Virus record (IMG/VR): IMGVR_UViG_3300032268_000658 | Reading direction: 5' to 3' (one strand) | DNA: 64,000 bases | Origin: a virus | Taxonomy: Duplodnaviria > Heunggongvirae > Uroviricota > Caudoviricetes | In this document: in pieces, positions 2,109 through 54,859 of the stretch | Position numbering within the stretch: the stretch's first letter is position 1 | Layout: the number at the start of each line of letters is the position of its first letter | Position numbers and translations under genes: made by a program | Notes under the pieces: model-generated | Database searches by the model: none | Told to the model about the DNA's origin: nothing | The model's input: the letters and a program-made list of their open reading frames with translations, nothing else

Positions 2109-2771
2109 TTATAGTTTAACACAACTTAACAATGCTTTCACATCTCTTGATGGGTCCGCACCTAATCCACCGTCTTTTTCGGATAATCCTGTTATAAATA
2201 AAACAATTATAGAACCTAAAGCTAATACTCCACCAGCAGCAAAACCAACTTCAGAACCAACACCGCTCATAATTAACATCGCAATTATACCAAGAGCATA
2301 AGCTCCAGCACTTGTTGTTAAAAACATCAAACTTGTCAATTGTTTTTGTGTGATACATTGTTTAATTTGTTTCATTACTGTTGGGTCTGGTGTTTCTCCA
2401 TTAGCAATTCTTTCTTCTGCATCATCAATAGCCATTTGAGCAGCGGCTTCAGTAAGTAATGGTCTTCTTGATTTTTGTTCTTTCACAGAATCTGTTGCTT
2501 TTGGAGCCTGATTAGGTACAGGTTTCTTTGTGTCAACGTAACAATATCCTGGTGTTTTAACTCCCATACTAGCGCATGATTTAATTGGCTTCTTTCCTTG
2601 TGTATCACAATAACCAGGACTTTTAACTCCCATACTAGCACATGTATCAATCATGTTGTAATTTTTTGATGAGGACGCCACTTTATCCTTCATAACTTTT
2701 GATTGTTCTTTGATTACTTTACTAACCAATCTTGTTAAATCGGCTTCAGTAAGTCTTATAATTTTTCCCAT
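2109..2771 (-). CDS. Membrane protein with the conserved N-terminal leader MGKIIRLTEADLTRLVSKVIKEQSK
   Basis: Leader nearly identical to the 33329..33655 and 4214..5050 genes; internal duplicated CASMGVK[ST]PGYC motif; C-terminal hydrophobic helices (GIIAMLIMSGVG.., GGVLALGSIIVLFITGL). Confidence 0.6.
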   Translation of the reverse strand: MGKIIRLTEADLTRLVSKVIKEQSKVMKDKVASSSKNYNMIDTCASMGVKSPGYCDTQGKKPIKSCASMGVKTPGYCYVDTKKPVPNQAPKATDSVKEQKSRRPLLTEAAAQMAIDDAEERIANGETPDPTVMKQIKQCITQKQLTSLMFLTTSAGAYALGIIAMLIMSGVGSEVGFAAGGVLALGSIIVLFITGLSEKDGGLGADPSRDVKALLSCVKL

Positions 2772-2815
2772 ATTAACTTTGTTTTATTATAAATATATCT
2801 ATCTTGGATAATGAT

Positions 2816-3589
2816 TTATTTGAAGTCAGGCAATTTTGTATCTTTAATAAATTTCTTATGTGAATCCTTATATGATTTTTGAGTTTCATCATTCACATCT
2901 TTGGTGTATTGCCAGTTCCAATATAAATCATCATTTGGCTTGAATCCATAAAATTCGTGTACTTTCTTTTGTACTTCAGTAACATTCTTTCCATTCCAAT
3001 TCTGTCCAACACAAATAAATCCTGTTTCAATATCTTTAACAAGATTTGATTCTCCCAATGTTGCATGTCTATTTTCAATCCAAGTTAGTCTTTCAATTAA
3101 GTTTTGATAAAACATATTGGTTTGCCCCCATCTAACGGAACTAAAGAATATAACAGCATCAGATTCAAACAATTCTTTTGATATCTTCCATAACTCATCT
3201 TCAGGGTTGTTAAAACTTGCCCAACATCTATGGTCACCTGATGGATTCTTCTTCTTGTCCTTAAGCATTGCCTTCAATACTCCACAACTATTACCGTCCT
3301 TCCTTGATACATTACCTTCACACGGTACTATATTTAATTCTGAAACATCAAGTAATGTTGAGTTATTACCCAATTCATCATCAAGGTACATTGCAATGGC
3401 TTTTGATTTTGGAATGTCGACATTATCCTCATCCCAATTGTATCTATTGGAACAACTTAATATCAAAACCTTTTTTTTATCTTTAAGAATGTCCAACGTT
3501 TTCTTAATTGACTTCCAAGCATCGGATTGTACCATCTCCTCGGAAATCATCATCTCTCTTATTCTCTGTATGTTTTCTTGTAAGTTCAT
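2816..3589 (-). CDS. NAD(P)H-dependent FMN reductase-like flavoprotein (flavodoxin fold) with MNLQENIQRIREMM leader
   Basis: KKVLILSCSNR.. / ..LNIVPCEGNVS..C.. / DAVIFFSSVRWGQTNMFYQNLIERLTW parallels the FMN_red family (KILGISGSPR / PCDGCGAC / DGIIFGSPVYFGSMSAQLKALIDR). Confidence 0.55.
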   Translation of the reverse strand: MNLQENIQRIREMMISEEMVQSDAWKSIKKTLDILKDKKKVLILSCSNRYNWDEDNVDIPKSKAIAMYLDDELGNNSTLLDVSELNIVPCEGNVSRKDGNSCGVLKAMLKDKKKNPSGDHRCWASFNNPEDELWKISKELFESDAVIFFSSVRWGQTNMFYQNLIERLTWIENRHATLGESNLVKDIETGFICVGQNWNGKNVTEVQKKVHEFYGFKPNDDLYWNWQYTKDVNDETQKSYKDSHKKFIKDTKLPDFK

Positions 3590-3595
3590 ATTAAA

Positions 3596-4204
3596 TTATT
3601 TTTCAAAAATATCAGAATCTGAAGATGTGTTTACAAAATTTTTAAATTGTTCCATATCTTGTTCAGAGCCCAATATGTGAATTTGATTTGGGTTTCTAAC
3701 CGTCACACTTTTTCCACTACCAACTCTTGCACTTCTTATTGTTCCGTCGTATTCAAATTTTGGTAACTCACCTGTTGTATCAAAATTATTTGCCCAATCT
3801 GGATTTAAAGGGTTCTCATACCTACGAATTTCTTTATCATAGTTGGGGTTTTGTTCATTTAAAGGGTTTTTAATATTTAAAACCACAGAATAAACATTTG
3901 GGCCAAATTGGTAACTTAACGGTTCTTCAGAAAACCAAAGATGACTTAGACCCGAACTTGATGGGTCCTTAAATTGTGAAAATTTGTTTTGACTCGAATG
4001 AAACATTATATCTTTAATTTTGCTGTCGGCAAATATTGAATCCAAATATTGCAGATATTGTTCCTTTGTTCCGATGTTTAATAATTCAGGGTGGTTATTG
4101 AATACATATTCAACTTTACTACTACTGATTCCAGAAACTTCTTCACCTTCCGAAATTAATTCCATCAATTCTTTCAATCTTAATATGTTTTCTTGTAAGT
4201 TCAT
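3596..4204 (-). CDS. Hypothetical protein with MNLQENILRLKELMELI leader; its N-terminus is a paralog of the 2816..3589 gene
   Basis: Shares the first ~15 residues with the adjacent gene; no catalytic motif seen. Confidence 0.5.
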   Translation of the reverse strand: MNLQENILRLKELMELISEGEEVSGISSSKVEYVFNNHPELLNIGTKEQYLQYLDSIFADSKIKDIMFHSSQNKFSQFKDPSSSGLSHLWFSEEPLSYQFGPNVYSVVLNIKNPLNEQNPNYDKEIRRYENPLNPDWANNFDTTGELPKFEYDGTIRSARVGSGKSVTVRNPNQIHILGSEQDMEQFKNFVNTSSDSDIFEK

Positions 4205-4213
4205 ATTAATCTT

Positions 4214-5050
4214 TTACCAAGTTCTACATGCCCAATATCTTGGTTTCCATCTTGGTCCAGGGTTTTCACAATTATGTCTAGCTCTAAAGTTTTTTCTACG
4301 TTCAGGATTATTCTTCTTAATCCTCATTATTTTACCATGAGCAGATTTACCACCAAACCCAAAGTTAACCTTTACAACCTTACCCTTATCGTTTTTAACA
4401 TATACCTTGGACTTCTTCACATCACCTTGCATAATCTTTCCAAGTTGAACCTTGCGTCCTTGGTATTCGGCTTCATTAATAAATTCTTTGTTATAATCAA
4501 TTGATTGAACTGAACCATACTTATCCTTATACAAAGTTTCATTTAAATCCATACCAAGTCTAAATTCAGACACCAATTCATCCACCAAAAAATCGGCATA
4601 TGTTATAAGTTCATCTAACTCATCATCGGATAATTCTTCCCCTTTAATTGCAGATTCAACTTCATATTCTATTTCACTAATCAGTTCGTCCAATTCTTCT
4701 TCAGTTGTATGTCTATTAAAATGATTGGCAATATGGTCCAAAGTATGCATGTGTTCTTCAAACTCATTTGATTCTTCTTCCTCATACAAAGTTTCATTTT
4801 TGGGTTTAATACCCTTCTTCTTCATATTGATGGCAATTGCAGCTTGTTGAGCGGGGCTTGAAGCTTCATTTGTTTCCTCATCTTCAGATTCGTTCTTAAC
4901 GCAATTTGGATATTTTTTACCAAACATTGTCTTCATTCCCTTTTTAGTATAACCTTTCCAACAAGCTTCGGTCATTTCTGATTCTTCTTTAAGAACACGA
5001 TTAACCAATTTAATCAAATCGGATTCTGTTAATCTTACTATTTTGGTCAT
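4214..5050 (-). CDS. Hypothetical protein with leader MTKIVRLTESDLIKLVNRVLKEESE, an acidic middle and a basic C-terminus
   Basis: Leader family; the C-terminal KGKVVKVNFGFGGKSAHGKIMRIKKNNPERRKNFRARHNCENPGP looks like a basic nucleic-acid-binding tail. Confidence 0.5.
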   Translation of the reverse strand: MTKIVRLTESDLIKLVNRVLKEESEMTEACWKGYTKKGMKTMFGKKYPNCVKNESEDEETNEASSPAQQAAIAINMKKKGIKPKNETLYEEEESNEFEEHMHTLDHIANHFNRHTTEEELDELISEIEYEVESAIKGEELSDDELDELITYADFLVDELVSEFRLGMDLNETLYKDKYGSVQSIDYNKEFINEAEYQGRKVQLGKIMQGDVKKSKVYVKNDKGKVVKVNFGFGGKSAHGKIMRIKKNNPERRKNFRARHNCENPGPRWKPRYWACRTW

Positions 5051-5110
5051 AATAATTTATTTATTATAAATACTCCAATCCATTTGTTTAATGGGGATAA
5101 AATATCTTTT

Positions 5111-5386
5111 TTAGAGTTTATCCACGGCATTAACAAATTTATGGCATTTTTCAGATACACCTCCCTTATCATGGTCAGTAATAGATAATTTGACATTATC
5201 ATAATGAACGGTCATATCAGGATGATGATTTTGTTTATCAGCAATTTTCATTACAGAATTAACAAATGGCATAACTTCTTTATAATCTTTAAAATAAAAT
5301 GTTTTGGTAAGTTTATTACCACCTTCTTTCCAATCACTTTTATTCATAATTGTTCTTTTTTGTTGTTCTGTTATTATATATTTCAT
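5111..5386 (-). CDS. Pterin-4a-carbinolamine dehydratase (PCD/DCoH-like)
   Basis: Motif ..KQNHHPDMTVHYDNVKLSITDHDKGGVSEK.. fits the PCD signature [EDKH]-x3-H-[HN]-P-x5-Y-x9-H-D. The likely start is the internal Met (MKYIITEQQ..) at 5386 rather than the track's 5443, which would overlap the upstream gene. Confidence 0.6.
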   Translation of the reverse strand: MKYIITEQQKRTIMNKSDWKEGGNKLTKTFYFKDYKEVMPFVNSVMKIADKQNHHPDMTVHYDNVKLSITDHDKGGVSEKCHKFVNAVDKL

Positions 5387-5742
5387 TAGTAATATCCGTA
5401 TTGAACACGGTCTATGGGAAGACCCGAATGTTGATTGAACCATTTAAGAAATACTGGTTTCCACAAGTCCTCAAACATACCTTCATACTTGTAATACAAT
5501 TGGTCTTCAAGTTCAACAATATTATCTTTCTTTAAATAATTCATAAACTTGGGGGAATCATTATCCGCCAAGTCAGTATAAAAATCTTTATCATAATAAA
5601 TGGGGAAAGAATCCTCAAACCCTCTCAACTCTCTTTTGATTTTTGAATGAGACCACCATCCACCTACAGGAGTAAGGTCCTTATCAAATACGGAAGTTAT
5701 AAAACTCTCCAACCTATTTTCTGTAATAAGATATTTCATCAA
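5386..5742 (-). CDS. Hypothetical protein (MMKYLITENRLESF leader)
   Basis: ORF; N-terminal IITE-type motif. Confidence 0.5.
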   Translation of the reverse strand: MMKYLITENRLESFITSVFDKDLTPVGGWWSHSKIKRELRGFEDSFPIYYDKDFYTDLADNDSPKFMNYLKKDNIVELEDQLYYKYEGMFEDLWKPVFLKWFNQHSGLPIDRVQYGYY

Positions 5743-5900
5743 TAATAAATATACCGACCCATATGTTTAAGATGATGATAATGAGGTGACCATTATACAA
5801 GGAGAATCCGAACCGACGAAGTCGGTCGGGGACCGTCGGCCAAAAAGGGGCGGGGGATTCCTACGACCGAAGGGAGTTTCCGTCGGGCGATATACGAATA

Positions 5901-6855: not shown

Positions 6856-7458
6856 CTATAATTTAACTCCCCCTTCAATAACCTTATCAGCTTCAAACTC
6901 ATTAGACCAATTATATCCTTCGTCACCCGACATTTGGTCAGGATAGATATTCTTTATACCTTGTTCAACAATCTTACTAATCTCCGTATTATTCCCATTA
7001 CATGTTACAAATGACATGCTACTGTTATTAATGCCGTGAAATACAACATTAGGTTTAGCATCCTTAACAATTCTCCCCATCAAATTCTCGGCTCTTATCT
7101 GTCTATGTTTTGAACTTGAATCATTTGCCACCTTAATTCCATTCTCAAGAACCTTCTCTGTCTCACATCTATCTTTCTCAGGATTATTAGCAATTGAACG
7201 GAGAGCAGAAACCTTGAAGAAATGCTCATTAGCCCATTGAATAACATACCCCTCCATTTCTTTCCCAACCGTCATTGAAACATATTTGAATACATCGTTG
7301 AAGAATTTATAGTTATACCATAAGGTCCCCTCATCGGTCAACTCAACAACCCACCTTGTTTCATCTGTAAAGATTAACCATGTGGCATTCTTGTACCGAT
7401 AAACATCCACCCCACTTATAGATGAATTTATAAGTTCTTCAATTATCTTTTTCATCAT
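6856..7458 (-). CDS. Hypothetical protein
   Basis: ORF. Confidence 0.5.
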   Translation of the reverse strand: MMKKIIEELINSSISGVDVYRYKNATWLIFTDETRWVVELTDEGTLWYNYKFFNDVFKYVSMTVGKEMEGYVIQWANEHFFKVSALRSIANNPEKDRCETEKVLENGIKVANDSSSKHRQIRAENLMGRIVKDAKPNVVFHGINNSSMSFVTCNGNNTEISKIVEQGIKNIYPDQMSGDEGYNWSNEFEADKVIEGGVKL

Positions 7459-9102: not shown

Positions 9103-9417
9103 TTAATAATATATTGAACAATAAGAGGCAACAATAAGTTCATTAGGATATTTTTTCTCAAACCATCTTACAAATATGTTTTCAGTTTCGGAAGCATTCA
9201 TATTGAATAAATGACTAATCGTTATAAATAGGTCTTGACTAACCCCCAAGTTGTGGTCAATAAATTCAAAGATAACTTTTCCTTTGTTAATAAGTTCGAA
9301 GTCTTCCTTGGATGCCATTACGTGGGATGAATTAGCCATGGTAAGGTCCCCCACCGTTTGAGTAATATAGTCGTCAAGAAATTTTAGAAGTCTACTTTCT
9401 TTAATGATATAATCCAT
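9103..9417 (-). CDS. Hypothetical protein (MDYIIKESRLLKFL leader)
   Basis: ORF; IIxE-type N-terminus. Confidence 0.5.
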   Translation of the reverse strand: MDYIIKESRLLKFLDDYITQTVGDLTMANSSHVMASKEDFELINKGKVIFEFIDHNLGVSQDLFITISHLFNMNASETENIFVRWFEKKYPNELIVASYCSIYY

Positions 9418-13478: not shown

Positions 13479-13928
13479 ATGGAAGTAATCATCACAGAAT
13501 CTAAGCTCACTAAAGTTATTTATACATACCTTACAATGTCTTTCGAAGGATTTGATAAATGTAGTTATGATTGGGCCAACTTTAATTGTGGTATGGGCGT
13601 TTGTTGTGACCCCTACGCTATAGGATTTGTTCTACCTGAAAGTGAATATGATGATTATCTATTTAAGTTAGTTAATGGTAAACTGTATGATGACGATAGT
13701 GATTATGGCGAAGACCTTAAAGGTGATTTACCTGAGCCTTGTAATTATTCACCTGATATAACTGATAGGGAGTTTGATACCATTATAATGGGTGAAGACA
13801 TATACGAAAGACTTCATGATTTATTTGGTGATATTGATATTTGGAGACAGCCTTTGGCATCCGTCATAAATAAAGTGTTTAATACGAACGCTCATACTCT
13901 GTTATACCGATACGAGACTTATAATTAA
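13479..13928 (+). CDS. Hypothetical Cys-rich protein (MEVIITESKLTKVI leader)
   Basis: ORF; IITE N-terminus. Confidence 0.5.
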   Translation: MEVIITESKLTKVIYTYLTMSFEGFDKCSYDWANFNCGMGVCCDPYAIGFVLPESEYDDYLFKLVNGKLYDDDSDYGEDLKGDLPEPCNYSPDITDREFDTIIMGEDIYERLHDLFGDIDIWRQPLASVINKVFNTNAHTLLYRYETYN

Positions 13929-13941: not shown

Positions 13942-14262
13942 ATGAAGTATATTATCACAGAAGACCAATATGAAAGAGTCATTAATCAGAAATCTCTTTC
14001 TTGGATTAAGAGAAGAATTAATTTGGTTAAAGAAGAATTGAAGGAGACCTTTGAACTTATGGAGTTTGATATTTGTCGAATAGATGATTATGAAAAGTTT
14101 GAACAGAAATTCTTCACTGTGTTAATGGATGGCCTTCATCCTTATTTCTATGATGACGAGAATATTGGTAATATCGAATACGATGGAATGTATGACTTAT
14201 TGAAGGATTACTTTTATGTTGATTGCACCGAGTTTTATTTTGCTGGTCGTGAGAAGTGCTAA
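13942..14262 (+). CDS. Hypothetical protein (MKYIITEDQYERVI leader)
   Basis: ORF; IITE N-terminus. Confidence 0.5.
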   Translation: MKYIITEDQYERVINQKSLSWIKRRINLVKEELKETFELMEFDICRIDDYEKFEQKFFTVLMDGLHPYFYDDENIGNIEYDGMYDLLKDYFYVDCTEFYFAGREKC

Positions 14263-18007: not shown

Positions 18008-19536
18008 TCAATCTCATTAACATCCAAACGTGAAGCCCATTCAAATGTAACCTTATAGTTTTTTACTTTATCGTGTTGTATTGGTGATATAATCTCAAAT
18101 CCCATTCCTCTTGCATTTGTATTAAAGTCTTCTCTAAATTTTAAAACTCTATCATTATAATCTTGTTCATTATTCGGATTATAATTTGTAAATAAAGGCT
18201 TAAGGACTACTTTGAAATCCCATCTTGAACCAACACTATTTGGGTCTGTGTAAGTTGTTCCCCACATACTTTTATCAATATGACCAACAAGAACTCCAAC
18301 CATTCCTTCTATTGGATTATCTTTGACAGTTATTTTGTATACCATATCAACCATCTTTTGAAACTCTTTCCTTCCCTTTTCTTTCTTATAATTGTCAAGA
18401 ACCTCTCCTGATAAAAATTGTTTTAAATAATCCAACATTTTGGATTCATTCATTGGCTCCCCTTTTTTGTTGAGATGTTTAAATACTTTTCCAATATTCT
18501 TTGGTAATGAATTAATAGGGATTAACTTTGCTTTGATTGTTTTTAATTTGTGTCTAACCGCTTTCTGTGCTCTGTGATGTCCATCAATTATTGAAATGAA
18601 ATTTCCGTCATCATCAACAAATATTAATATTGGATATTGTAAGTCTGATTTTTCTATTTTGGCAACTTCTTCGTCATCATCGTTCCATGTTAATAACTTG
18701 GACTTTATTTTATTTACAGAAATATTCCTAACAGGTATTTTTTCTGTTGCATCTAATAAATCAATTAAAGTAATTTTATCACCTTCATCATTTTGCCAAG
18801 ATGTATCATGAAGTCCTTCGCTTATTAAATCTATGTCAACTTCCTTATCCTCAAACCATTTTAAGATTATTTTTTTTATATTCCTTTTTTTTCCGAACAT
18901 TGCGTCAATTGAACTAAAAAATTCAGGATTTATATTATATTCTGGCTTTCCAAAAACATCAAATTTAAAAATTAAATTGTCTCTTTCATCTTCAGGGTCA
19001 GGTAAAGTAAATGTTGTAATTGACCCATTTACGCCAGGAGGTGCAAGTTTAATTTTTTGAGCTGTTGGATAACTCATTGATATGTAATCACCTATTAATT
19101 TTTCCAACCTTTCGTTGGATGACTCAGACATTACCTCATCACATGACTTAACATTTCTTAAAAATACATCTGTACTAATACCTAAGAAGTTATAAATTGT
19201 ATGCCATACATCATTTACAATTGCGTCTCTTTCTCTGACCTTATCTTGTGTGTTTGGCCAACGATTTGAACCTACACCACCAATAACACTAACCATAACT
19301 TGGTAGTCTCTATTAAATGGGTCCTTATACATTTTCCACGGAGCAACTGCGTCAAATTTACAAATTATTCCTTTGTATTTGGGACCAATACTACTGTTCA
19401 ACAATTCTTTGATTGCTGAACTCAAGTCTTGTTCTGTTTGTTCTTTAAGTATTCTTTTGATAAGTTGTCTCACGTTTATAAATATCTTATATTTGATTAG
19501 TATGACACAGATAGAAAAAGTAATAGTTAAGTTCAT
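18004..19536 (-). CDS. ParB/sulfiredoxin-like nuclease domain protein; the real start may be GTG at ~19473
   Basis: ..ISIIDGHHRAQKAV.. ParB-like core. The first 21 track residues are hydrophobic junk. A GTG start would put the leader-like RQLIKRILKEQTEQ at the N-terminus and remove the overlap with the divergent 19502 gene. Confidence 0.55.
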   Translation of the reverse strand: MNLTITFSICVILIKYKIFINVRQLIKRILKEQTEQDLSSAIKELLNSSIGPKYKGIICKFDAVAPWKMYKDPFNRDYQVMVSVIGGVGSNRWPNTQDKVRERDAIVNDVWHTIYNFLGISTDVFLRNVKSCDEVMSESSNERLEKLIGDYISMSYPTAQKIKLAPPGVNGSITTFTLPDPEDERDNLIFKFDVFGKPEYNINPEFFSSIDAMFGKKRNIKKIILKWFEDKEVDIDLISEGLHDTSWQNDEGDKITLIDLLDATEKIPVRNISVNKIKSKLLTWNDDDEEVAKIEKSDLQYPILIFVDDDGNFISIIDGHHRAQKAVRHKLKTIKAKLIPINSLPKNIGKVFKHLNKKGEPMNESKMLDYLKQFLSGEVLDNYKKEKGRKEFQKMVDMVYKITVKDNPIEGMVGVLVGHIDKSMWGTTYTDPNSVGSRWDFKVVLKPLFTNYNPNNEQDYNDRVLKFREDFNTNARGMGFEIISPIQHDKVKNYKVTFEWASRLDVNEID

Positions 19537-19777: not shown

Positions 19778-20761
19778 ATGGAGAGCCGCGAAAAAACAGT
19801 TAAGTTACTTGAATCTTTTTTATCTGATAAAGAGGTTGATGGTGTTTGTGGTTATATAGTTGACCCTGATGGTGAAGGTCAAATTCAAGTTATTGTTGTC
19901 CTTGATATTGATTACATACAAGAGGCCAATACAAAACCAGGGTTTATCGCTAGAATGATTAGAGAAGGCGTAAAACAAGAAATTAAAAAATGGATTGGTA
20001 TTGATGTATATGTTGGTTCAACCGCTAAGAAGTGTGATGAAATTGAACCTTTATCAGAATCAATGTCAACACATGTTAAAAGAAGATTGATTAATGGTGA
20101 ATTATTCGACCAGTTAAACACAATTATGGATTATGAATTTAACGCCTCATCATTTAACAGTCCTTTAGAATATCTCGAAGAAATTTGTAACGCTTTAACA
20201 GAACATACTCTTGATTATATTTGGGAAAATACAAAATTAAAGGTTAGTCTTAAAGAGAAGGATGAATTGTATTTTTATTTTATTAGAAAATATGAGAAGT
20301 ATATCACTAAAAAATATCAAGACGAACGTAGTGTAGATGAATCAAAAAAGAAATATGTTGTTACAGAATCACAATATAATATTATATTAGAGTCACAAAA
20401 ACACATTAAAGTATTTCAAGAACTTATTGATAATGAGATGGTATATATTCGTAGAGTTTGCGAAAAAGGTGCTGATGATTATGAAGGAGATGTTGGTGAT
20501 GAATCATGTAATCAAATTGAAAATGTTGAAAAAGTCATAGTTACTGATGCTGATTGGGTTACAGTGATGCATAGTAATCAACCATTAGAACAAAAATACA
20601 TGAGTATAAAACTTATGGTATATTTTAGTTCAATAAGACGTGGTGATTTTGATGCGGATGACTTAACATATGATTTAGAAAGAATAATACGAAAGAAGAC
20701 ATCAATGCCAATAATAATTAATTACGAATCAACAAATACAAACACATCTTTTGAGTGGTAA
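19778..20761 (+). CDS. Hypothetical acidic protein
   Basis: ORF. Confidence 0.5.
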   Translation: MESREKTVKLLESFLSDKEVDGVCGYIVDPDGEGQIQVIVVLDIDYIQEANTKPGFIARMIREGVKQEIKKWIGIDVYVGSTAKKCDEIEPLSESMSTHVKRRLINGELFDQLNTIMDYEFNASSFNSPLEYLEEICNALTEHTLDYIWENTKLKVSLKEKDELYFYFIRKYEKYITKKYQDERSVDESKKKYVVTESQYNIILESQKHIKVFQELIDNEMVYIRRVCEKGADDYEGDVGDESCNQIENVEKVIVTDADWVTVMHSNQPLEQKYMSIKLMVYFSSIRRGDFDADDLTYDLERIIRKKTSMPIIINYESTNTNTSFEW

Positions 20762-22710: not shown

Positions 22711-23706
22711 CTATTTTTTTAAGTGATTAAATTTAAAGAATATGTTTTGTATCGGTGGGTCTTCTCCGTTGTGTCTAAATCTTGTCGCCATGTAGTCTCT
22801 AAGAAGTTCCATGATTTTAACTTTGGCTCTCTCTTCTGCTTTTTCTTTGGTCATACCTTGCATTTCCCCTTTCAAATAATTTTGTGAAGTAGGTTCTTCT
22901 CCATTATCGCCTCTACGAATCACATCAAGAATATCAACTGTAACAATCGCCTTATCACCTTCTTCTTCAATTGATTTAATTTTGAATTTAATATTTGCGT
23001 TGGCTGTCTCCGCGTCTCCCATCCAACTAAAAGCTTTTGCAGTTTTCTTTCTTTTGGTTAATTCAGGCTCAAACTCTTTAAGTTTCTTTAACTTATGTTT
23101 CATTACTTCCTCATGAGTTGCTCCTTGTTTTAACATCTTCATTTCTTCTTGTGATAATAAATAAACTACCTCTTGTAACTCATCCTCCCATTTAACAGGA
23201 TTTGCATTACTCATTTGTTTTGATGTTGAAGATGAATATCTACCAGTAACTTCATACCATTTCTCGTCTTTGAATATGTAAACAGGGTACCAATTATAAG
23301 AAACTACTTCATAGAATGGTTTACCGTTGTAATCTTTACTCCATCGTCCAATTAAATTAGAACCTTTAAATGGTAGTTGCGCAATCGTATATAATTTTGC
23401 TTTTGGGTTTGAAGTTGTTTTACCTTGTTGTTTTCTTGGGTCAATAAAATTACCTTTTGTTAACCCTGAATAGTCCCCATCTTTTCTGTAATTCAATACG
23501 TATAATTCTAATAGATATAATGCATATTCAGATGGAATATTCATATATGGAGCATAATTCTCAATGACTTGAATAAGAGAAGCTCTGGTTTTATTCTTCT
23601 TTTTCTCTTCATTCAACATTTTAAACAACTTAACAATAACGGGCATCGATGGTTCCCTTTGTTCCAATAAAACCTTAAGTACAATTTGAGATATTAATTT
23701 CTCCAT
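22711..23706 (-). CDS. Hypothetical protein
   Basis: ORF. Confidence 0.5.
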   Translation of the reverse strand: MEKLISQIVLKVLLEQREPSMPVIVKLFKMLNEEKKKNKTRASLIQVIENYAPYMNIPSEYALYLLELYVLNYRKDGDYSGLTKGNFIDPRKQQGKTTSNPKAKLYTIAQLPFKGSNLIGRWSKDYNGKPFYEVVSYNWYPVYIFKDEKWYEVTGRYSSSTSKQMSNANPVKWEDELQEVVYLLSQEEMKMLKQGATHEEVMKHKLKKLKEFEPELTKRKKTAKAFSWMGDAETANANIKFKIKSIEEEGDKAIVTVDILDVIRRGDNGEEPTSQNYLKGEMQGMTKEKAEERAKVKIMELLRDYMATRFRHNGEDPPIQNIFFKFNHLKK

Positions 23707-33341: not shown

Positions 33342-33655
33342 CCTGGTTTATACGAATCCCATATTTTATACCATTCAGGTTTTTTTGTTTCCAAAGCTTT
33401 TTCTGTATCAGGTCCCCACACACCATCTGTTGGATATACTCCTAACATTCCTTGAAGTTTCTGTATCGCTTTCTCAGTTTCAGAGTTTGGTCCTGTTTTT
33501 CCGTCAGGTACCAATTTAGTATTCATAACTCTTTTATCGTTCAAGAATTTCTGAACTGCAATTGTGTACTTTCTTTCCTCACTTTGTTCTGAAATAACTT
33601 TTTTAACCAATCTTGTTAAATCAGCTTCAGTTAGTCTTATAATTTTCTTTGCCAT
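33329..33655 (-). CDS. Peptidoglycan-binding-domain protein with leader MAKKIIRLTEADLTRLVKKVISEQSEE
   Basis: ..VPDGKTGPNSETEKAIQKLQGMLGVYPTDGVWGPDTEKAL.. resembles PG_binding_1 (DGxxGPxTxxAl) repeats. Confidence 0.5.
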   Translation of the reverse strand: MAKKIIRLTEADLTRLVKKVISEQSEERKYTIAVQKFLNDKRVMNTKLVPDGKTGPNSETEKAIQKLQGMLGVYPTDGVWGPDTEKALETKKPEWYKIWDSYKPGWFS

Positions 33656-40216: not shown

Positions 40217-41251
40217 TTGCCCCTTTTTTTGTATTTATATGTTATGGAATATTCTTGGGATGACATTGTAGAAAAATTCAATAATAATGACTTAGACGTT
40301 CAAAAGTATTTTAACGACTATGAAACATTTTTTAATGTATTGAAGAAAAGAGGTCTTATGGGTGAAGTTGACCCTAAGAACGCCAGTGATGGTTCAATTT
40401 GGCAAAACGAATATCTTCTTTGGTTATATGAAAACGACAGAGAAAACTACTACAAATGGGTTCCAAGTTTATTAACTGATGTTATTATTGAAAATGGTAA
40501 AGCCTATTTAGAAATTTCTGATAGAGGTGATTTATCAAACTTATTCTGTGATGGAAACAGATATGACTTATCAAGAGATACTATTGAAAATATTTTATCA
40601 GGTGATGGTGATTTTTACGAACCTTACCATAACACGACTGATGATGTTTATAGAGATGTTATTGAAGAATTAACACCTGAGAACGACAAAAAACTTGGTG
40701 AATATATTGTTGATATGTTAAAAGGTCAACAAATATCTGCGGATACTGATGAACTTCAACTTATTGCATCGGAGCAAGGTCATCCAGAATATGTTGAAGT
40801 GGATATTGAAAATGTTAAAAGAATTATTGAAGATGAGGAAACTATGAAAGAATTACTTAGTGACCAACTGAGTGATTTGAAAGGTGAATTATATTCAATC
40901 CATAGTTCTGCATATAATTCTGCATATGAAAGTTCTGTTTACAATACAATATGGAGTGAATTGGGGACTTATTTTGAAGGTAATGGTGAATGGGTTAGTA
41001 AACCCCACCCATACAAGAAGAACACTGAAATTCAGTACTTTAAAATACCAATAAAAGACTTTGACGCACAAGTTAACGACTATCTATTTAATAATAAAGG
41101 GTATGGTAATTCAGGAACTTTGGAGTACCATGGAAGTTTTATTGGAATTATGAAAGAAGATAGAGATTGTTTAAACGCTCAAGCTCCTGATTATCCAGAC
41201 CATCGTGAAGTAGATAAAAACATAAATACATATTTCCAAGAGTATCTTTAA
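40217..41251 (+). CDS. Hypothetical acidic protein
   Basis: ORF. Confidence 0.5.
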   Translation: MPLFLYLYVMEYSWDDIVEKFNNNDLDVQKYFNDYETFFNVLKKRGLMGEVDPKNASDGSIWQNEYLLWLYENDRENYYKWVPSLLTDVIIENGKAYLEISDRGDLSNLFCDGNRYDLSRDTIENILSGDGDFYEPYHNTTDDVYRDVIEELTPENDKKLGEYIVDMLKGQQISADTDELQLIASEQGHPEYVEVDIENVKRIIEDEETMKELLSDQLSDLKGELYSIHSSAYNSAYESSVYNTIWSELGTYFEGNGEWVSKPHPYKKNTEIQYFKIPIKDFDAQVNDYLFNNKGYGNSGTLEYHGSFIGIMKEDRDCLNAQAPDYPDHREVDKNINTYFQEYL

Positions 41252-42042
41252 TGAACATAGTTAACAACATATTAAAAGTTCTTCAAGAGCAAAGAGGGTT
41301 TACTCCACGTAAGACTCCGCCAAAGAACATTAAAAGTATCTTAGGCCAGATTGAATTATTTGAGATGTATCCAAAGATATTTGCCCTTGTTATTAAAGAT
41401 GATAAGTTAAGAGCCAGAGTATTCATGAGATACCAAGAATTCTACGAATCAGATTCTGATTCATTTAGAGGTAAAGGTTTCAAGTGGCAAGACTACACCA
41501 AATTCTATAAAGAAAAGACCAAGAAGGATTACTTCTCATATCATGAAGATTGGGCAGGTTATAACATGCCTTGTACATCAATTGAATCTTGTATCGCCAA
41601 AATTCCTGACCTTAACTTTTATGACTTAATAATGTTTAGTGTTGTGGATACAATCAAAAACATTATAGGTGGTGATGACTATTACCTAATTGGTATTGAC
41701 CAAAGTGACGGTGAAGACCCATCACTTATTTTCCATGAGGTTGCCCACGGATTATGGTTTTCATCTTCAATATACAAAAGAAAACAATTCAACAACATTG
41801 AAAGAATGAATCCATCTTTAAGAAATACAGTTGCAAAGAAAATAACTGGAATGGGTTATGGTGAAAATGTTGTCGATGATGAGATTCAGGCCTATTTATC
41901 TACAGGTGTTGGCGACAACATGACAAGAATAAAAGATATTAAACAAGCCCAACTTCCTTTCAAAGCAGTTTTTGACTCTTATGCTGGGAAGATTAAACCA
42001 AAAAAGATTAACATCGATTGGAGTACCGATTTAGATAACTAA
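41251..42042 (+). CDS. Putative zinc metallopeptidase (HEVAH) with leader MNIVNNILKVLQEQRGF
   Basis: HExxH in ..LIFHEVAHGLWF..; leader family. Confidence 0.45.
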   Translation: MNIVNNILKVLQEQRGFTPRKTPPKNIKSILGQIELFEMYPKIFALVIKDDKLRARVFMRYQEFYESDSDSFRGKGFKWQDYTKFYKEKTKKDYFSYHEDWAGYNMPCTSIESCIAKIPDLNFYDLIMFSVVDTIKNIIGGDDYYLIGIDQSDGEDPSLIFHEVAHGLWFSSSIYKRKQFNNIERMNPSLRNTVAKKITGMGYGENVVDDEIQAYLSTGVGDNMTRIKDIKQAQLPFKAVFDSYAGKIKPKKINIDWSTDLDN

Positions 42043-42893
42043 TGAAATTTATTAATATATTATCTTCAGTTATTTCTGAACAGAAACGATTCAAGTTTGA
42101 CCCAGAAACTTATACTAAGTTATTGGTGTTAACTGATAAGTTATGGGCGAATAGAAATAAAGAATATGATAAGAAAACTCAAGTAGACTATTTTCAATTT
42201 AAAACTTCTGATGGAACCGATGCTTTAGTTAAAATATTTATCAACCCAAGATATCGTCATTTTGGTGAATTGGATTCAAGACCAAAAGGTTCAAGAGACC
42301 CAATGGATTTAGTAATGCAATTGAATCCAAAAATGTATGGCTCAAAGAAAAATTTATTTTTAACCATATACCACGAAATGTTACACGCCACTGACCCTGC
42401 TCAGTCCACAAAATTTAACAACAAATACCAATCAACATATAATGAAAAATCTGATAAAGATTATTGGGGTCACAAAATTGAGTTCAGAGCAATTACAAAT
42501 GAATTCTTAGAAGGATTGGTTAATGAATTCACAAAAAGGTCGAATAGATTAAGAAATCTTGATAATAAAAAACACTTATTAAAATCTTTAAGTAACATAT
42601 TAAATTATTTTGGCAAAGGTGAAAAACTATCTAATTTATCTTTAGATATTCTAAGTAGATTAAATGATGAAAATGTTAATGATAATAGGATTTCCAACTT
42701 ACTTGGAAATATTACTTTAGATTATCCTGGTGCAACTGATTTAATGAAAACTAATAAAGAAGAACCATATTACATCCATTACATTGAGCAAATCAAAAAA
42801 TATAACCCTGAAATTTGGCCAAGATTCCTAACAATGTTATACAATACAAAAGAAGAAATTGAAAATGTTATAAATAAAAAAGGGGTTAACTAA
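42042..42893 (+). CDS. Putative zinc metallopeptidase (HEMLH) with leader MKFINILSSVISEQKRF
   Basis: HExxH in ..TIYHEMLHATDP..; leader family; adjacent to a similar gene. Confidence 0.45.
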   Translation: MKFINILSSVISEQKRFKFDPETYTKLLVLTDKLWANRNKEYDKKTQVDYFQFKTSDGTDALVKIFINPRYRHFGELDSRPKGSRDPMDLVMQLNPKMYGSKKNLFLTIYHEMLHATDPAQSTKFNNKYQSTYNEKSDKDYWGHKIEFRAITNEFLEGLVNEFTKRSNRLRNLDNKKHLLKSLSNILNYFGKGEKLSNLSLDILSRLNDENVNDNRISNLLGNITLDYPGATDLMKTNKEEPYYIHYIEQIKKYNPEIWPRFLTMLYNTKEEIENVINKKGVN

Positions 42894-47557: not shown

Positions 47558-48880
47558 TTAGTCTTGAAGGTCCCACATACCTCCGCCCATATCAGTTCCT
47601 TTAGCCTTAATCGCTTCAGGTACCTCAACATTGGTAGAACCTTTCAAGTTCAAGAAATATAAATTAGGTAAATCTGCAATACAATCAGGAATTGTTCTTA
47701 ATTCAGGGTTATTAATTAACGCTAAGAATCTCAATTTAGGTAATGTACAGATTGATTCAGGGATAGATGTAATACAGTTATCCAATAGAATCATATTCAA
47801 ATCTTTAAATCTTCCAATCTCTTCAGGGATAGTAATAATAACGTTTTTGTTATCATTACCTCTGTTTTGAATTTGGAATTCTTTTAGTGATTCAGGTAAA
47901 CTTCCAATTAAATCATCTAAACCATAAAGAGCGATGAACTTACCGATTGCTCCATGACTGAAACTATCAATAACCAATTTCTCTCCACCCACAGTAAGAC
48001 CTTTAGCAAACTCAGGTTTAAAGAATGATTTCAATTCTGCCATTGGTCCGTTAAGTAATTGAACCAAATCTTGTTGACGGTCATCCTTATCCATAAATTG
48101 GTTTGATGGGAAATGGAATTGATAACGAGTTTTAGGTAATCCTGTTGATGGAGCAAGGTCTGTATCGTTTGGATTGAATATCACATATAAAGGACCATCC
48201 TTAATATATCTATCAAACCATGAAGCACCAGGTGCAGATGTACACCATCTTGTTTCTTGGTTATTACCACCGTAGAAACAAGCCGCCTCTTTACCAACAA
48301 CTCCCTTATCTTTAATTTCAATTACTCTCCAATTATCACCGTCATACATTAATTTAGCACCAGGGTGAACCTCAGCAGATTTTCTTTCAGCTTTAGTTGT
48401 TGATGCCAATGTTAAATCAAAATCTTTAACCGCGTCATATAGTTGGTCAGGAGTAATCTTATTAATATCTCTTAATTCTTTAGGTAATCTACCTTTGAAT
48501 CTTTCAAACTTTTTAAGGTCATCAGTAACTTTATAAAGGTCTTCCATAAAAGTCGCTTTAACCTGCTTAACCTCTTTTTCATAACCATTATCACCATACT
48601 GTCTTTCAGTCTTCGGGTTTAAATAATTCTTAATTAACCATTGAACATACGCTCCCGCCTTTACCTTAGCTAATTGGTCAGAATTCGCCGTATCAATTTC
48701 AATATTATTCAATTTTGTTGTTGGGTCTGCCTTAACTAATTCAATAAATTCTTTCTTATCTAGCTTGGGTTTTACCTTAACACCATTCTTATCCTCACTT
48801 GGTTTTGTCAAAGCATTAAACAAAACTTCAAACCTTGATTGTTCTGCTATGATGTTTTTTAATAACGACGTAAATTTCAT
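47558..48880 (-). CDS. Leader-bearing protein with the conserved WCT-motif domain (paralog of the 38171..39931 gene) plus C-terminal leucine-rich repeats
   Basis: Leader MKFTSLLKNIIAEQSRF; LRRs IPESICTLPKLRFLALINNPELRTIPDCIADLPNLYFLNLKG. Confidence 0.6.
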   Translation of the reverse strand: MKFTSLLKNIIAEQSRFEVLFNALTKPSEDKNGVKVKPKLDKKEFIELVKADPTTKLNNIEIDTANSDQLAKVKAGAYVQWLIKNYLNPKTERQYGDNGYEKEVKQVKATFMEDLYKVTDDLKKFERFKGRLPKELRDINKITPDQLYDAVKDFDLTLASTTKAERKSAEVHPGAKLMYDGDNWRVIEIKDKGVVGKEAACFYGGNNQETRWCTSAPGASWFDRYIKDGPLYVIFNPNDTDLAPSTGLPKTRYQFHFPSNQFMDKDDRQQDLVQLLNGPMAELKSFFKPEFAKGLTVGGEKLVIDSFSHGAIGKFIALYGLDDLIGSLPESLKEFQIQNRGNDNKNVIITIPEEIGRFKDLNMILLDNCITSIPESICTLPKLRFLALINNPELRTIPDCIADLPNLYFLNLKGSTNVEVPEAIKAKGTDMGGGMWDLQD

Positions 48881-48924
48881 CTGATTTTTATTTATTAATA
48901 AATATGTTGGGAATGCAAAAATAA

Positions 48925-50031: not shown

Positions 50032-50947
50032 GTCGTTCAAACTTAACGTTTAACTTAACATACATATCCCCGCCATTATATCCCTTACCTTTAAGTCTTA
50101 AAGGTCTTGAGGTGTCAAATAAACGTGGTGAACCCATACTTAAATCCCCATTTGGGTGTGGTATTAGGAACTTATCTTTTTGGACCTCTTCTAAATTAAG
50201 GTAAAGATTATATATTAAATCGTTATTCAATTTTTCAAACCCGTCTTTACTCACAACTTCAATTTGAATAACTAAATCCCCATAGTCTCCGTGTTTAAAA
50301 TCACCAGCATTTTCAAGTTTTAAATACTGTCCTGAATCAATACCAACAGGTAATTTTATTTTAACACTATTCGCCAAAGATTTGGTACCATTCCCTCCAC
50401 AGTTATAACACTTGTGTACCAAAGTGTATCCTTTACCACCACAGGTACTACAATTAGTTCTAATTTGTTGTACCATGAATCCAGTACCATATGTTTTTAC
50501 TTCAAACCCTTGTCCCTTACATGTCGTACATTGTTGTTGTTCCCCACCTGTTCCACTACAAATGTTACAATGGTTTTCCTTAATATAATGAATATCTTTT
50601 TCCACACCTAAGTATGATTCAATAGGAGTAATAACTACCTTCACTATTTTATCAGGGGCGTTTTTTCTTTTTTGTTGTCTGAACGGAGAACCTCCATTCC
50701 TAAACATCTGTGAGAACATATCTTCATAAGCTGTTCCTTCGAATGGATTTGATTTTGAACTATCGTATTTGGCTTTCTTTTCTGGATTACTTAGTACGTC
50801 ATATGCCTCAGCAATTCCCTTAAATTGTTCTGCTCCATCAGGATTTACATCGGGGTGATATTTCTTTGAAAGTGCTCTGTATGATTTTTTAATCTCATCT
50901 GCGGACGCTTTCTCTTCAACTTCTAAAATTTTATAGTAATCTTTCAT
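50024..50947 (-). CDS. dnaJ: DnaJ-like co-chaperone (J domain plus CxxCxGxG zinc finger)
   Basis: YYKILEV...YHPDVNP (HPD) and four CxxCxGxG repeats. Confidence 0.75.
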   Translation of the reverse strand: MKDYYKILEVEEKASADEIKKSYRALSKKYHPDVNPDGAEQFKGIAEAYDVLSNPEKKAKYDSSKSNPFEGTAYEDMFSQMFRNGGSPFRQQKRKNAPDKIVKVVITPIESYLGVEKDIHYIKENHCNICSGTGGEQQQCTTCKGQGFEVKTYGTGFMVQQIRTNCSTCGGKGYTLVHKCYNCGGNGTKSLANSVKIKLPVGIDSGQYLKLENAGDFKHGDYGDLVIQIEVVSKDGFEKLNNDLIYNLYLNLEEVQKDKFLIPHPNGDLSMGSPRLFDTSRPLRLKGKGYNGGDMYVKLNVKFERPI

Positions 50948-52729: not shown

Positions 52730-52810
52730 TGTTAAATTATAATTTAGTTTATTGTTTATTTTAGAATATTAACTTTTATCCCTCTGGTGTAAATAGAATA
52801 AGGGTTTTTT

Positions 52811-53284
52811 TTAAACTATACTCTTTTCTAATAACTTATAAAGTTCGGTTAATATATCTAAATCTGATTTGCTGAATGGTTTATTTAAATCAAAAACTTC
52901 ACCTAAGAATTTTGGAATAGAATCTTTAATATTTTTATCGGGATGGTTATAAAACGTATCCATAAAAAATGATTTAAAATATTCTTTATGGTCTCCATAT
53001 TCCTTAATCTTAATGTTTTCTTTTCGGAAGTCTTCTACAACTTTATTCCAACACCACACAAAATGTAATTCTTTATCTTCTTGAGTTAAAGATATTTTAG
53101 TCTCGGTATTTTCATCAGTATTACCCATATACGTATCAATAATAATATGGTTCAAAGATTTGAATATGTCACCATACAATTCAATTTTTTCATAATTCAT
53201 ATTATGAATATTAAGCCAAATTATTAATTCGTCTTCAGGTATTGGTTTGGATATCCAATTAAAAAAATTCTCCATAGAGTTCAT
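52811..53284 (-). CDS. Hypothetical protein
   Basis: ORF. Confidence 0.5.
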   Translation of the reverse strand: MNSMENFFNWISKPIPEDELIIWLNIHNMNYEKIELYGDIFKSLNHIIIDTYMGNTDENTETKISLTQEDKELHFVWCWNKVVEDFRKENIKIKEYGDHKEYFKSFFMDTFYNHPDKNIKDSIPKFLGEVFDLNKPFSKSDLDILTELYKLLEKSIV

Positions 53285-53323
53285 CTATGGAGAATATAAT
53301 AAAATGATATTAAATGTGAATTT

Positions 53324-54859
53324 TTATTGAGTTTTTCTGTCGTAAGAAATTAAATTTTTCATCTTATTCATCTCTTCAGATACGATTTTTACTTTCTTAT
53401 CTTCCGTAGATTCTAATGTGTTAAGTATTTTAGTTGCCTTATTAATTGAACTTGATTTGTCAGCTCCTTGTTTAGACTTTAAAGAACCTTTCGATTTACC
53501 TTGACCTTCAACCTCAACAGGTTGTGGTTGTCTCTTATAAGACGCTTTCATTTGTTCAGCACCATATAAATTTTCATCGTAATTCTTTTTAAATCTTTCT
53601 CCAACTTCACCACTTCTTTTTGATACATTACCTAAAGCTTTACCATCTTTACCCGTAACTGCATTTCCCGTAGTCGCGTCACCTTTTAATTGTTTCTCAA
53701 TTCTCTTATCGTCAGGTTTGATTTCATCATAAACTAAGTTTGTCATACCAGGGTAAGCAAACGCCTCGATGTATTCTTCAACTGCGTCAGATGGATGATA
53801 TTTCATTTCTTTGTGTTCTTTTTCCATGTCGTAATTACTTTGAGGGAAATCGTCAGGGTTTTCATCGTATCCTTTACCACCCATGAACATATCTTTCATG
53901 TAATCTTTCATTTTTGTAACTACTTCTTTTGCATAATCATCATTCTCTTTCTTGTCTAATTCTAAAACCTTATTAGTCTTTTTAAGACCTTCAGCCTCTT
54001 TCTTTGCAATGTTTGAAGTTTCTGCTTTGTCTTTAACTTTTTGTTCAAGTACAATTTGTTCAATCATATCGATTAATTCGTCTTCTGTTAATCTTAATGA
54101 ATTCTTATTTTCTTTAACTTGATATTTTTTACCATCAACTTCGAAAGAATCTTTACCATCCTTTTTAGCGTCAGCTAAAGCCCCTGAGAAAGCATTTCCT
54201 TCTTCAGTTTCTTGCTCACCCATATCCCTTGGAGTTCTAACTCTGAATGGTTTACCACCAAATTTATCTTGATATTGTTTAAAGAATCTTTCTCCACCTT
54301 TTGGTGCAAACCATGATTGGTTTTTACCATGTTTTGACATCAATGATTCAAAATCAGGAAATTCTTCTTCATCATAATCTGAAATAGCATCAGGATGACT
54401 TTGTCTGTCAATGTCATCATACCATCCGTGTTCATCATCAAATGAACCCATCATTTTTGGTTTACGACTAACGTCCCAACTATTCTTACCTAAACCTTTA
54501 CCAACGTAAGTTGGTTCTTGAGCAGATAATTCTTCGGCCTCTTCTTCCTCTTCCTCGTCACCCTCATAATCACCAGGAGTTGATTCACCTTCTTCGTCAT
54601 CAAAGAAAAACCATTCTTCAACTTCTTCTTTATGTTTTTTAGCATCTCTTAATTTCTTAAAATCTGCTGAAGTGATTTTACCTTTTGGCTCGGCAACGTC
54701 AATCTTCTTTTGACCCCCTTTAAGTTCTTCATCCATTTCAACTTCAGTCCATTCACCTTCATTGATTTTTTTTGATAGTTCTTTAACTTTCCCCTCAATC
54801 TCTTCGTTCAAGATTCTTGAGACAAGTTTATCAATATTTTTGTTAAAATTATTCATCAT
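53324..54859 (-). CDS. Highly acidic protein (scaffold-like?) with an internal copy of the leader motif
   Basis: EEEEEEAEEL run; internal ..LRLTEDELIDMIEQIVLEQK.. nearly matches the N-terminal leader of the 33329..33655, 2109..2771 and 4214..5050 genes. Confidence 0.55.
   Translation of the reverse strand: MMNNFNKNIDKLVSRILNEEIEGKVKELSKKINEGEWTEVEMDEELKGGQKKIDVAEPKGKITSADFKKLRDAKKHKEEVEEWFFFDDEEGESTPGDYEGDEEEEEEAEELSAQEPTYVGKGLGKNSWDVSRKPKMMGSFDDEHGWYDDIDRQSHPDAISDYDEEEFPDFESLMSKHGKNQSWFAPKGGERFFKQYQDKFGGKPFRVRTPRDMGEQETEEGNAFSGALADAKKDGKDSFEVDGKKYQVKENKNSLRLTEDELIDMIEQIVLEQKVKDKAETSNIAKKEAEGLKKTNKVLELDKKENDDYAKEVVTKMKDYMKDMFMGGKGYDENPDDFPQSNYDMEKEHKEMKYHPSDAVEEYIEAFAYPGMTNLVYDEIKPDDKRIEKQLKGDATTGNAVTGKDGKALGNVSKRSGEVGERFKKNYDENLYGAEQMKASYKRQPQPVEVEGQGKSKGSLKSKQGADKSSSINKATKILNTLESTEDKKVKIVSEEMNKMKNLISYDRKTQ

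Follow-up and report, generated by a model that had tools for sequence, protein, structure and literature searches.

The 64,000-nucleotide (nt) stretch of phage DNA analyzed here (IMG/VR record IMGVR_UViG_3300032268_000658; referred to as the window) is AT-rich (~33% GC) and carries ~100 densely packed genes. About 16 otherwise unrelated proteins encoded in the window start with one of a few near-identical short peptides, referred to here as leaders. The leaders are under selection at the peptide level and are restricted to viruses, and the sequence comparisons described below give an even chance that they are capsid-targeting propeptides of a T4-type head-assembly system.

Three leader classes cover nine N-termini in the window, in addition to which there are one class 2 variant, two internal copies, and six shorter N-termini. 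Class 1 has the pattern M-x-K-I-I-R-L-T-E-S/A-D-L-x-x-L-V-x-x-V-I-x-E (M.KI[IV]RLTE[AS]DL..LV..V[IL].E in the window), class 2 has the pattern M-K-Y-I-I-T-E-S-Q (window starts, MKY[IL]ITE or MEVIITE), and class 3 has the pattern M-N-L-Q-E-N-I-x-R-I-x-E (window starts, MNLQENI.R..E). The leaders and leader-like segments in the window, some of them supported by hidden Markov model (HMM) matches, were as follows.

2706..2771 (-): class 1 leader MGKIIRLTEADLTRLVSKVIKE, gene 2109-2771, body with C-terminal Gly-rich hydrophobic segments; HMM and alignment
4985..5050 (-): class 1 leader MTKIVRLTESDLIKLVNRVLKE, gene 4214-5050; HMM and alignment
33587..33655 (-): class 1 leader MAKKIIRLTEADLTRLVKKVISE, gene 33329-33655, PG_binding_1-like body; HMM
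54041..54100 (-): internal class 1 copy SLRLTEDELIDMIEQIVLEQ, residues 254-273 of the product of gene 53324-54859
5360..5386 (-): class 2 leader MKYIITEQQ, pterin-4a-carbinolamine dehydratase gene 5111-5386; HMM
5713..5739 (-): class 2 leader MKYLITENR, gene 5386-5739; HMM
9391..9417 (-): class 2 variant MDYIIKESR, gene 9103-9417; weak HMM score, TATTTAT box 5 nt upstream
13479..13505 (+): class 2 leader MEVIITESK, gene 13479-13928; HMM
13942..13968 (+): class 2 leader MKYIITEDQ, gene 13942-14262; HMM
20348..20398 (+): internal class 2 copy KKYVVTESQYNIILESQ, gene 19778-20761
3548..3589 (-): class 3 leader MNLQENIQRIREMM, gene 2816-3589, labeled flavodoxin/FMN-reductase-like in an earlier reading
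4163..4204 (-): class 3 leader MNLQENILRLKELM, ART-PolyVal-like gene 3596-4204
19438..19473 (-): short basic-helix leader VRQLIKRILKEQ, GTG start, ParB-like multimodule gene 18004-19473; TATTTAT box 4 nt upstream
23659..23706 (-): short leader MEKLISQIVLKVLLEQ, gene 22711-23706
41251..41292 (+): short leader MNIVNNILKVLQEQ, HExxH gene 41251-42042
42042..42083 (+): short leader MKFINILSSVISEQ, HExxH gene 42042-42893
48839..48880 (-): short leader MKFTSLLKNIIAEQ, leucine-rich repeat (LRR) gene 47558-48880
54800..54859 (-): short leader MMNNFNKNIDKLVSRILNEE, acidic gene 53324-54859

The shared N-terminal leader had been proposed in an earlier reading of the letters alone (the sequence-only reading), and for the nine N-termini in the three classes the proposal is now supported by HMM matches or alignment. 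The common start that it saw in genes 2109-2771, 4214-5050, and 33329-33655 corresponds to the three class 1 leaders, which had independent E values of 1e-11 to 7e-14 as well as alignment support; the four class 2 leaders had values of 3e-4 to 7e-8. The leaders of the genes ending at 2771 and 33655 are nearly identical also as DNA, the internal copy in 53324-54859 was located, and the GTG start proposed near 19473 is backed by the TATTTAT box 4 nt upstream. In contrast, 6856-7458 (MMKKIIEEL) and 7538-7852 (MKETIYKF), which had been counted as members, were not supported. The figure of more than 15 leader genes is true for the genome, because six further leader genes lie directly to the left of the window on the same scaffold. 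The six short N-termini, of the form hh..hh.E[QE], are plausible members but individually too short for significance. The enrichment of the motifs, which were chosen post hoc, was 4- to 11-fold in the first 25 residues compared to internal positions of the same ~100 proteins. No model covering the leaders was found in Pfam or PHROGs.

The proteins are otherwise unrelated, as had been claimed. Their bodies include Pterin_4a, ART-PolyVal, PG_binding_1, LRR, and HExxH types and, by label, a flavodoxin/FMN_red-like type. The ART-PolyVal match scored 24.9 bits, under the 31.2-bit cutoff. Neither gene 2816-3589 nor its actual orthologue (positions 4093-4866 of the related locus L005) matched a Pfam family, so its flavodoxin/FMN-reductase label comes from the sequence-only reading; the Flavodoxin_2/FMN_red assignment in Pfam belongs to a 190-amino-acid (aa) product at L005 158-730 that is not the orthologue. 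The C-terminal domain of 4214-5050 is present without a leader in pelagiphages and roseophages. A Cys-framed motif, CWKGY.KKGMKTMFGK.YPNCVK, follows the class 1 leader of 4214-5050 (aa 26-64), is also listed for 54883-55632, and occurs on abundant stand-alone metagenomic leader proteins of 54 to 65 aa (P0002-P0021); it matches parts of several PHROGs of unknown function. A ParB-like module (GLHDTSW...IIDGHHR), which is an internal part of a 489-aa protein in the window (18004-19536, minus strand), is a stand-alone class 3 leader protein in locus L001 (14902-15309), which is a case of fusion or fission of modules around leaders.

The leaders reach far beyond the window. The class 1 profile matched more than 160 short proteins from metagenomes that have the consensus MKKIIRLTESDLTRLVKRVIKEQ and then continue in unrelated ways; among 1.84 billion library proteins, it matched the representatives of 4,575 clusters formed at 50% identity. 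Among the top 150 of the 4,575 clusters, the match begins at residue 1 or 2 in ~90%, and the rest are internal copies or leader-body-leader-body fusions. Nearly all HMM matches (290 of 291) were N-terminal or had a Met within five residues upstream. Back-translated MKYIITE was found in at least 120 stretches of IMG/VR viral contigs (5 to 320 kb), with up to six copies per stretch, and the MKYIITESQ pattern was found in 3 of 185,579 species-representative prokaryote genomes, in all three cases on contigs of metagenome-assembled genomes.

In order to compare the bodies, the leader was stripped from 401 leader proteins from related loci, and the remainders formed 137 BLASTP clusters. The class 2 motif occurs on at least 90 body clusters, and 10 of the 137 bear more than one leader class. 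For example, the pterin dehydratase has a class 2 leader in the window and a class 3 leader in L001 and L025, and another body is preceded by a class 1 leader in L010 but by a class 3 leader in L106. The L005 orthologue of 2109-2771 bears leader DNA of the 33655 type. This exchange and the DNA identity of the 2771 and 33655 leaders suggest that leaders are spread by recombination of a cassette. Domains on leader proteins include Pterin_4a, ART-PolyVal, PG_binding_1, LysM, phage lysozyme, LRR, alpha/beta-hydrolase, and DHH, and most leader proteins have no known domain. Most are single-module proteins of 90 to 330 aa, with folded enzyme cargo of up to 550 aa. In L001, ~20 of 34 genes bear one of the three classes. 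The class 2 count in relatives is inflated by a strongly expanded family of ~100-aa paralogues (75 of 300), which does not explain the rest.

The invariant leader residues use all of their synonymous codons. Among independent orthologue pairs, synonymous divergence (pS) in leaders versus bodies was 0.54 versus 0.47 for class 2, 0.62 versus 0.55 for class 3, and 0.22 versus 0.23 for class 1. Because leader pS is not below body pS, no sequence-level constraint on the RNA or DNA is detectable, and because the residues are fixed while all synonymous codons occur, the peptide is what is conserved. Codon usage in the leaders of the window and loci L009-L211 was skewed relative to that of the genome (Tyr TAC, 58% versus 24%; Asn AAC, 89% versus 28%); in class 3, ATA accounted for 97% of Ile codons compared to a genome average of 32%, and leader Leu was encoded only by TTA or CTA.

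Within the leaders, conservation reaches 4.2 to 4.3 bits at a terminal Glu, which is residue 22 (V-I-x-E) in class 1 and residue 7 (I-T-E) in class 2. Just past this Glu, conservation falls to <1.6 bits in class 1 and to 2.2 to 2.8 and then <1.7 bits in class 2. If the conserved part is a propeptide that is removed, a conserved block ending at Glu would be expected. The hydrophobic-x-Glu that the sequence-only reading had pointed out was present across all classes as I-T-E, L-T-E, L-Q-E, or V-I-x-E.

All 16 members in the window have their own TATTTAT box or lie directly behind a gene that has one. The boxes in the window were as follows.

2789..2795 (-): TATTTAT late-type box upstream of gene 2109-2771
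5066-5072, 5745-5751, 9423-9429, 13467-13473, 13931-13937, 19478-19484, 23712-23718, 48898-48904, 54873-54879: further TATTTAT boxes

Across all loci, 46% of leader genes (72% in class 1) had TATTTAT in the 45 nt upstream, compared to 21% of the remaining genes (odds ratio, 3.3; p, 8e-28). The box also precedes terminase, portal, protease, scaffold, and baseplate genes in relatives (loci including L101, L215, and L055), as well as tail-fiber-like genes. Because it is common to leader and structural genes, TATTTAT is probably a phage-specific late promoter. Its median distance to the ATG is 5 nt, and many of the resulting mRNAs are therefore probably leaderless. Among genes with the box 3 to 7 nt upstream, 39% bear a leader and 61% have other N-termini, baseplate genes among them. 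The T4 late box TATAAATA reads as TATTTAT on the opposite strand, perhaps by coincidence.

A second box, TAnnTTTG, which we take to be the Bacteroidota sigma-A -7 box, was rarer before leader genes (5%) than before other genes (12%). It precedes replication-type and early-type genes and an operon with a phage sigma-70-family gene (58805-59602).

24936, 25480, 28678, 29293, 46328, 47127, 60124, 61118, 63592: upstream regions with TAnnTTTG

TAnnTTTG points to a probable Bacteroidota host, and the distribution of the two boxes suggests an early-to-late cascade that would be driven by the phage sigma factor. Three genes on the minus strand (16231-16839, 16864-17661, and 55880-56296) code for Bacteroidota-style Sec/lipoprotein signal peptides (MKKLLL...FSQ/FTQ). 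Two of the three lie behind TATTTAT-like boxes, and these proteins could thus be secreted late phage proteins.

The window corresponds to positions ~22,420 to 86,419 of a 116-kb metagenomic scaffold (ENA KRAE22-1_SAMEA4981777 scaffold_73). INPHARED contained no DNA-level relative of the window and no leader match among cultured phages. By capsid protein, the nearest cultured relatives are Flavobacterium phage immuto (42%), Microcystis phage Mel-JY01, and Rhodothermus phage RM378, which places the window phage in a distant T4-like lineage. The first 50 kb of immuto, the closest cultured phage, lacks leaders.

A prohead protease, for which the sequence-only reading had called, was found as Peptidase_S77 in close relatives and not on the part of the window's scaffold that was read. 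Walking onward from the right edge of the scaffold gave only tail-fiber-like genes and a glycosyltransferase island and no head module. In L101, where the head module was encountered by chance, in L215, and in many other loci, the genes are in T4 order: large terminase, Portal_T4 (9e-74), a 248-aa protein rich in L-x-E-S, a 141-aa protein, a gp21-like Peptidase_S77 prohead protease (9e-21; 6552-7232 in L101), a very acidic scaffold-like protein (391 aa), and the capsid protein Gp23 (1e-71). Within 10 kb of the S77 protease gene were orthologues of 2816-3589 (87% identity) in 26 loci, of 5111-5386 (87%) in 19, and of 4214-5050 (48%) in 4. The protease is at least 88% identical across the best 80 of 537 relatives and is thus a conserved component, as expected of a machine that recognizes a conserved tag. 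In the predicted capsid protein, L-I-N-E|A stands nine residues ahead of a block that can be aligned with residues 26 to 62 of mature T4 gp23*. The relatives' protease has I-L-I-E near its N-terminus, and T4 gp21 has L-I-E (PMC9026906).

In T4, gp21 cleaves after L/I-x-E, and head proteins are directed to the scaffolding core by N-terminal propeptides that are 7 to 65 residues long. The 10 N-terminal residues of IPIII are enough to load foreign proteins, and the internal proteins are alike only in their leader (PMC9026906, PMC3012670, PMC12373910). The T-even capsid-targeting sequence (CTS) of Ip1 to Ip3 and their relatives (MKTYQEFIAE) is among the closest known parallels in form: a short N-terminal leader that ends in I-x-E, is the sole likeness among unrelated proteins of a T4-type phage, and is encoded in variable regions alongside a gp21-type protease and a scaffold core (here in relatives). 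The leaders described here differ in comprising three or four classes instead of one, in reaching lengths of 22 residues, with classes 1 and 3 each having two candidate sites, and in marking dozens of genes per genome compared to 3 in T4 (~10 types known). Furthermore, their putative cargo includes enzymes of 90 to 550 aa, whereas the T-even cargo consists of small basic proteins.

T4 Alt, a packaged ADP-ribosyltransferase cleaved by gp21 (PMC9026906), begins with MELITE, six residues that are marked in GenBank X15811 as removed by cleavage. Class 2 MKYIITE is close to this M-x-hydrophobic-I-T-E start. However, Alt is a single T4 protein compared to at least 90 body clusters here, and the ART-like protein of the window bears class 3 and not class 2. 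In phiKZ, 201phi2-1, and SPN3US, many head-internal proteins lose propeptides to a gp21-related protease that cuts after Glu (PMC9026906; see also PMC5694885 and PMC7411985). There the site is S/A-x-E, no common leader is known, and the proteins were identified by proteomics and not by a sequence tag. Polyvalent proteins (Iyer et al. 2017, PMC5512222) overlap in effector domains (ART-PolyVal, zincin-like HExxH, and ParB-like) and in predicted codelivery with DNA, but they combine 2 to 15 domains in one giant polypeptide, whereas the proteins here are solo proteins, each with its own leader.

Capsid targeting and T4-type proteolysis had been proposed in the sequence-only reading. Every available check fits, while core binding, cleavage, packaging, and ejection are steps that we infer. 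Leader genes would be transcribed late from TATTTAT promoters alongside head genes. The leader is predicted to consist of a short extended segment (K-I-I-R-L or K-Y-I-I) and then T-E-S-D/Q-L, plus, in classes 1 and 3, a basic amphipathic helix. It would bind the prohead scaffolding core, so that the attached protein is built into the head. Peptidase_S77 would then cut after the Glu of I-T-E, L-T-E, L-Q-E, or V-I-x-E, freeing the cargo inside the capsid, and ejection of the DNA would carry the cargo along into the next host. Recombination within the leader-promoter cassette would give new cargo genes a leader. The predicted cargo types (ART-PolyVal, HExxH peptidases, ParB-like, LRR, PG-binding, LysM, lysozyme, and Gly-rich membrane segments) fit injected effectors (PMC5512222).

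Several points weigh against capsid targeting. The evidence for packaging and cleavage is circumstantial, and INPHARED has no cultured leader-bearing relative whose virion proteome could be consulted. The head module is known from relatives and not from the part of the window's scaffold that was read, and the late timing of leader genes is read from the common promoter box only. L/I-x-E is a common tripeptide, and by eye the leaders share only M-K and I-x-E with the T4 CTS. A very large share of the genes is tagged, amounting to ~15% for the window and as much as 60% for some loci, and the pterin dehydratase, the flavin-reductase-like protein, thioredoxin, and a DHH phosphoesterase have no obvious use on injection. 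Among orthologues, compared without conditioning on the motif, leaders were not consistently better conserved than bodies (identity, 0.79 versus 0.68 for class 2, 0.68 versus 0.77 for class 1, and 0.75 versus 0.75 for class 3).

It is possible, but in our view unlikely, that the leaders are docking tags for some other conserved partner, such as the phage DnaJ/DnaK, a late assembly platform, or S77 acting as a regulator outside the capsid, and that the cargo works in the cell unpackaged. A short peptide that is sharply conserved on many bodies implies one conserved partner without naming it. The window codes for DnaJ (50024-50947) and the relative L078 for an Hsp70-like protein, and hydrophobic cores flanked by basic residues (KIIRL and RRILR) would fit the general Hsp70-binding pattern. 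Metabolic cargo would also be easier to account for. However, docking leaves unexplained why conservation ends at the Glu of (I/L)-x-E, the likeness to the Alt propeptide, the presumed coexpression with and proximity to head genes, and the effector-like cargo.

It is improbable that the leader is simply a recombination handle, a cassette of promoter, start, and leader for module swapping whose peptide has little function. The near-identical DNA of the 2771 and 33655 leaders, the 33655-type leader DNA in L005, the exchange of classes on identical bodies, the leader-body-leader-body fusions, and the biased leader codons (TAC, AAC, and ATA) would all fit such a handle. Nevertheless, pS in the class 2 and class 3 leaders (0.54 and 0.62) is near saturation and equal to that in the bodies (0.47 and 0.55), and the residues are fixed although all synonymous codons are used. 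A handle accounts for the spread of leaders but not for their upkeep.

Even less probable is an in-plane amphipathic helix or a nonclassical export signal that directs late proteins to the membrane or the cell envelope, where they would act in lysis or remodel the envelope. The peptidoglycan-acting cargo (PG_binding_1, LysM, and lysozyme), some hydrophobic segments, and the basic amphipathic pattern read from the class 1 and class 3 sequences are compatible with such a role. However, helices of this type keep their composition, whereas here T, E, S, D, and L are each conserved at ~4 bits; class 2 is merely 7 to 9 residues long; canonical Sec-type signals are found on other genes of the genome (16231-17661 and 55880-56296); and the cargo is mostly cytoplasmic in type. 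The leaders, charged throughout, do not have the hydrophobic h-region after a basic n-region that marks Sec, Tat, or lipoprotein signals.

That all leader proteins are diverged paralogues of one family has very little probability and is refuted for the set as a whole. The expanded ~100-aa class 2 family does show likeness past the leader (KYLD..G.L), but the bodies belong to unrelated Pfam folds and to 137 BLAST clusters, and the same body occurs with different leaders or, in other phages, without one. A constraint on initiation at the mRNA level (A/U-rich first codons in mRNAs without a Shine-Dalgarno sequence or 5' leader), the alternative offered by the sequence-only reading, would suit the probably leaderless TATTTAT mRNAs and the codon choice that departs from the genome average at some leader positions, but it is largely refuted and retains hardly any probability, because pS in the leaders is unreduced, each of three distinct peptide classes is synonymously free, and 61% of the genes with the same box spacing have unrelated N-termini, only 39% bearing a leader. 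The leader proteins do not fit precursors of ribosomally synthesized and posttranslationally modified peptides, which are short, have a variable core, and are encoded next to modifying enzymes: folded enzymes as large as 550 aa are among the cargo, although some Cys-containing members of 54 to 65 aa exist.

Outside phage heads, encapsulation peptides of bacterial microcompartments and cargo-loading peptides of encapsulins are short terminal helical tags that load unrelated enzymes into a protein shell; they differ from the leaders in being uncleaved and less conserved in sequence. PduP MNTSELETLIRTILSEQL may resemble ...SDLTRLVKRVIKEQ. Such tags combine an amphipathic helix with a flexible linker. 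An AlphaFold2 model of 33329-33655 has a helix from residue 10, but its predicted local distance difference test score (pLDDT, 57) makes it too uncertain to use, and the composition after the leader gave no support for a disordered linker (0.64 compared to 0.59 in the rest of the protein).

The principle of a shared N-terminal capsid-targeting leader on unrelated proteins of T4-type phages is known. A full-text literature search for the leader motifs found no paper. Apparently undescribed are the leader sequences themselves, their division into three or four interchangeable classes, how many genes are tagged in each genome, cargo as large as enzymes, and the distribution over thousands of protein clusters in uncultured aquatic phages. 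We advance only tentatively, and with less confidence than capsid targeting itself, the broader proposal that an uncultured aquatic T4-like clade, probably with Bacteroidota hosts, loads dozens of proteins per genome into its capsids by means of three or four interchangeable leaders that S77 removes.

If that proposal is true, the loaded set would be 15% or more of the genes and would comprise enzymes, peptidases, ART-like and ParB-like effectors, and cell-wall-binding proteins. The T4 internal-protein principle, which concerns three small proteins in T4, would then extend to an injected proteome that is large and modular. The leader would serve as a sequence-only key to thousands of injected effectors of never-cultured phages (at least 4,575 clusters for class 1 alone), marking by sequence alone candidate first-strike effectors such as antidefense and host-takeover proteins, and it could be used as a short portable tag to load foreign proteins into the T4-type capsids of Bacteroidota phages. 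If the leaders are not loading tags, ~4 bits per residue on >4,500 unrelated clusters would still point to a highly conserved receptor.

Other features of the window were also of note. A full-length match to the GOLLD RNA (Rfam RF02032) at 29391-29798 on the minus strand scored 328.9 bits compared to a gathering score of 150 (E, 5.6e-95). It lies within an open-reading-frame-poor stretch (~29300-31100), ~860 nt from a tRNA-Met(CAT) gene at 30662-30734 on the minus strand. According to this match, a T4-like phage carries a giant ornate noncoding RNA.

A protein with many CxxC/CDxC repeats, resembling DnaJ-type zinc fingers, is encoded at 26412-27272 (plus strand) near other small acidic proteins. 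The window also codes for the full DnaJ mentioned above (50024-50947) and has thioredoxin and glutaredoxin-like genes (43738-44363) and an S-adenosylmethionine (AdoMet)-decarboxylase-like gene (23723-24115).

Tail-fiber-like proteins with DUF285 repeats and strong PHROG matches (9e-74) are encoded at 1-1716 (minus strand) of the window and at 11501-13894 of L004; in the metagenomic scaffold, a run of N interrupts the DUF285 tail-fiber-like gene. In the closest long relative (IMG/VR 3300042564_004498; L130 1120-9677 and L210 1-8070), the DNA to the right of the window's conserved 737-aa protein codes for several large proteins with repeated 'ITSITANTP..Y.C' N-terminal modules, and these are followed by an ~8-kb glycosyltransferase/sugar-modification island.

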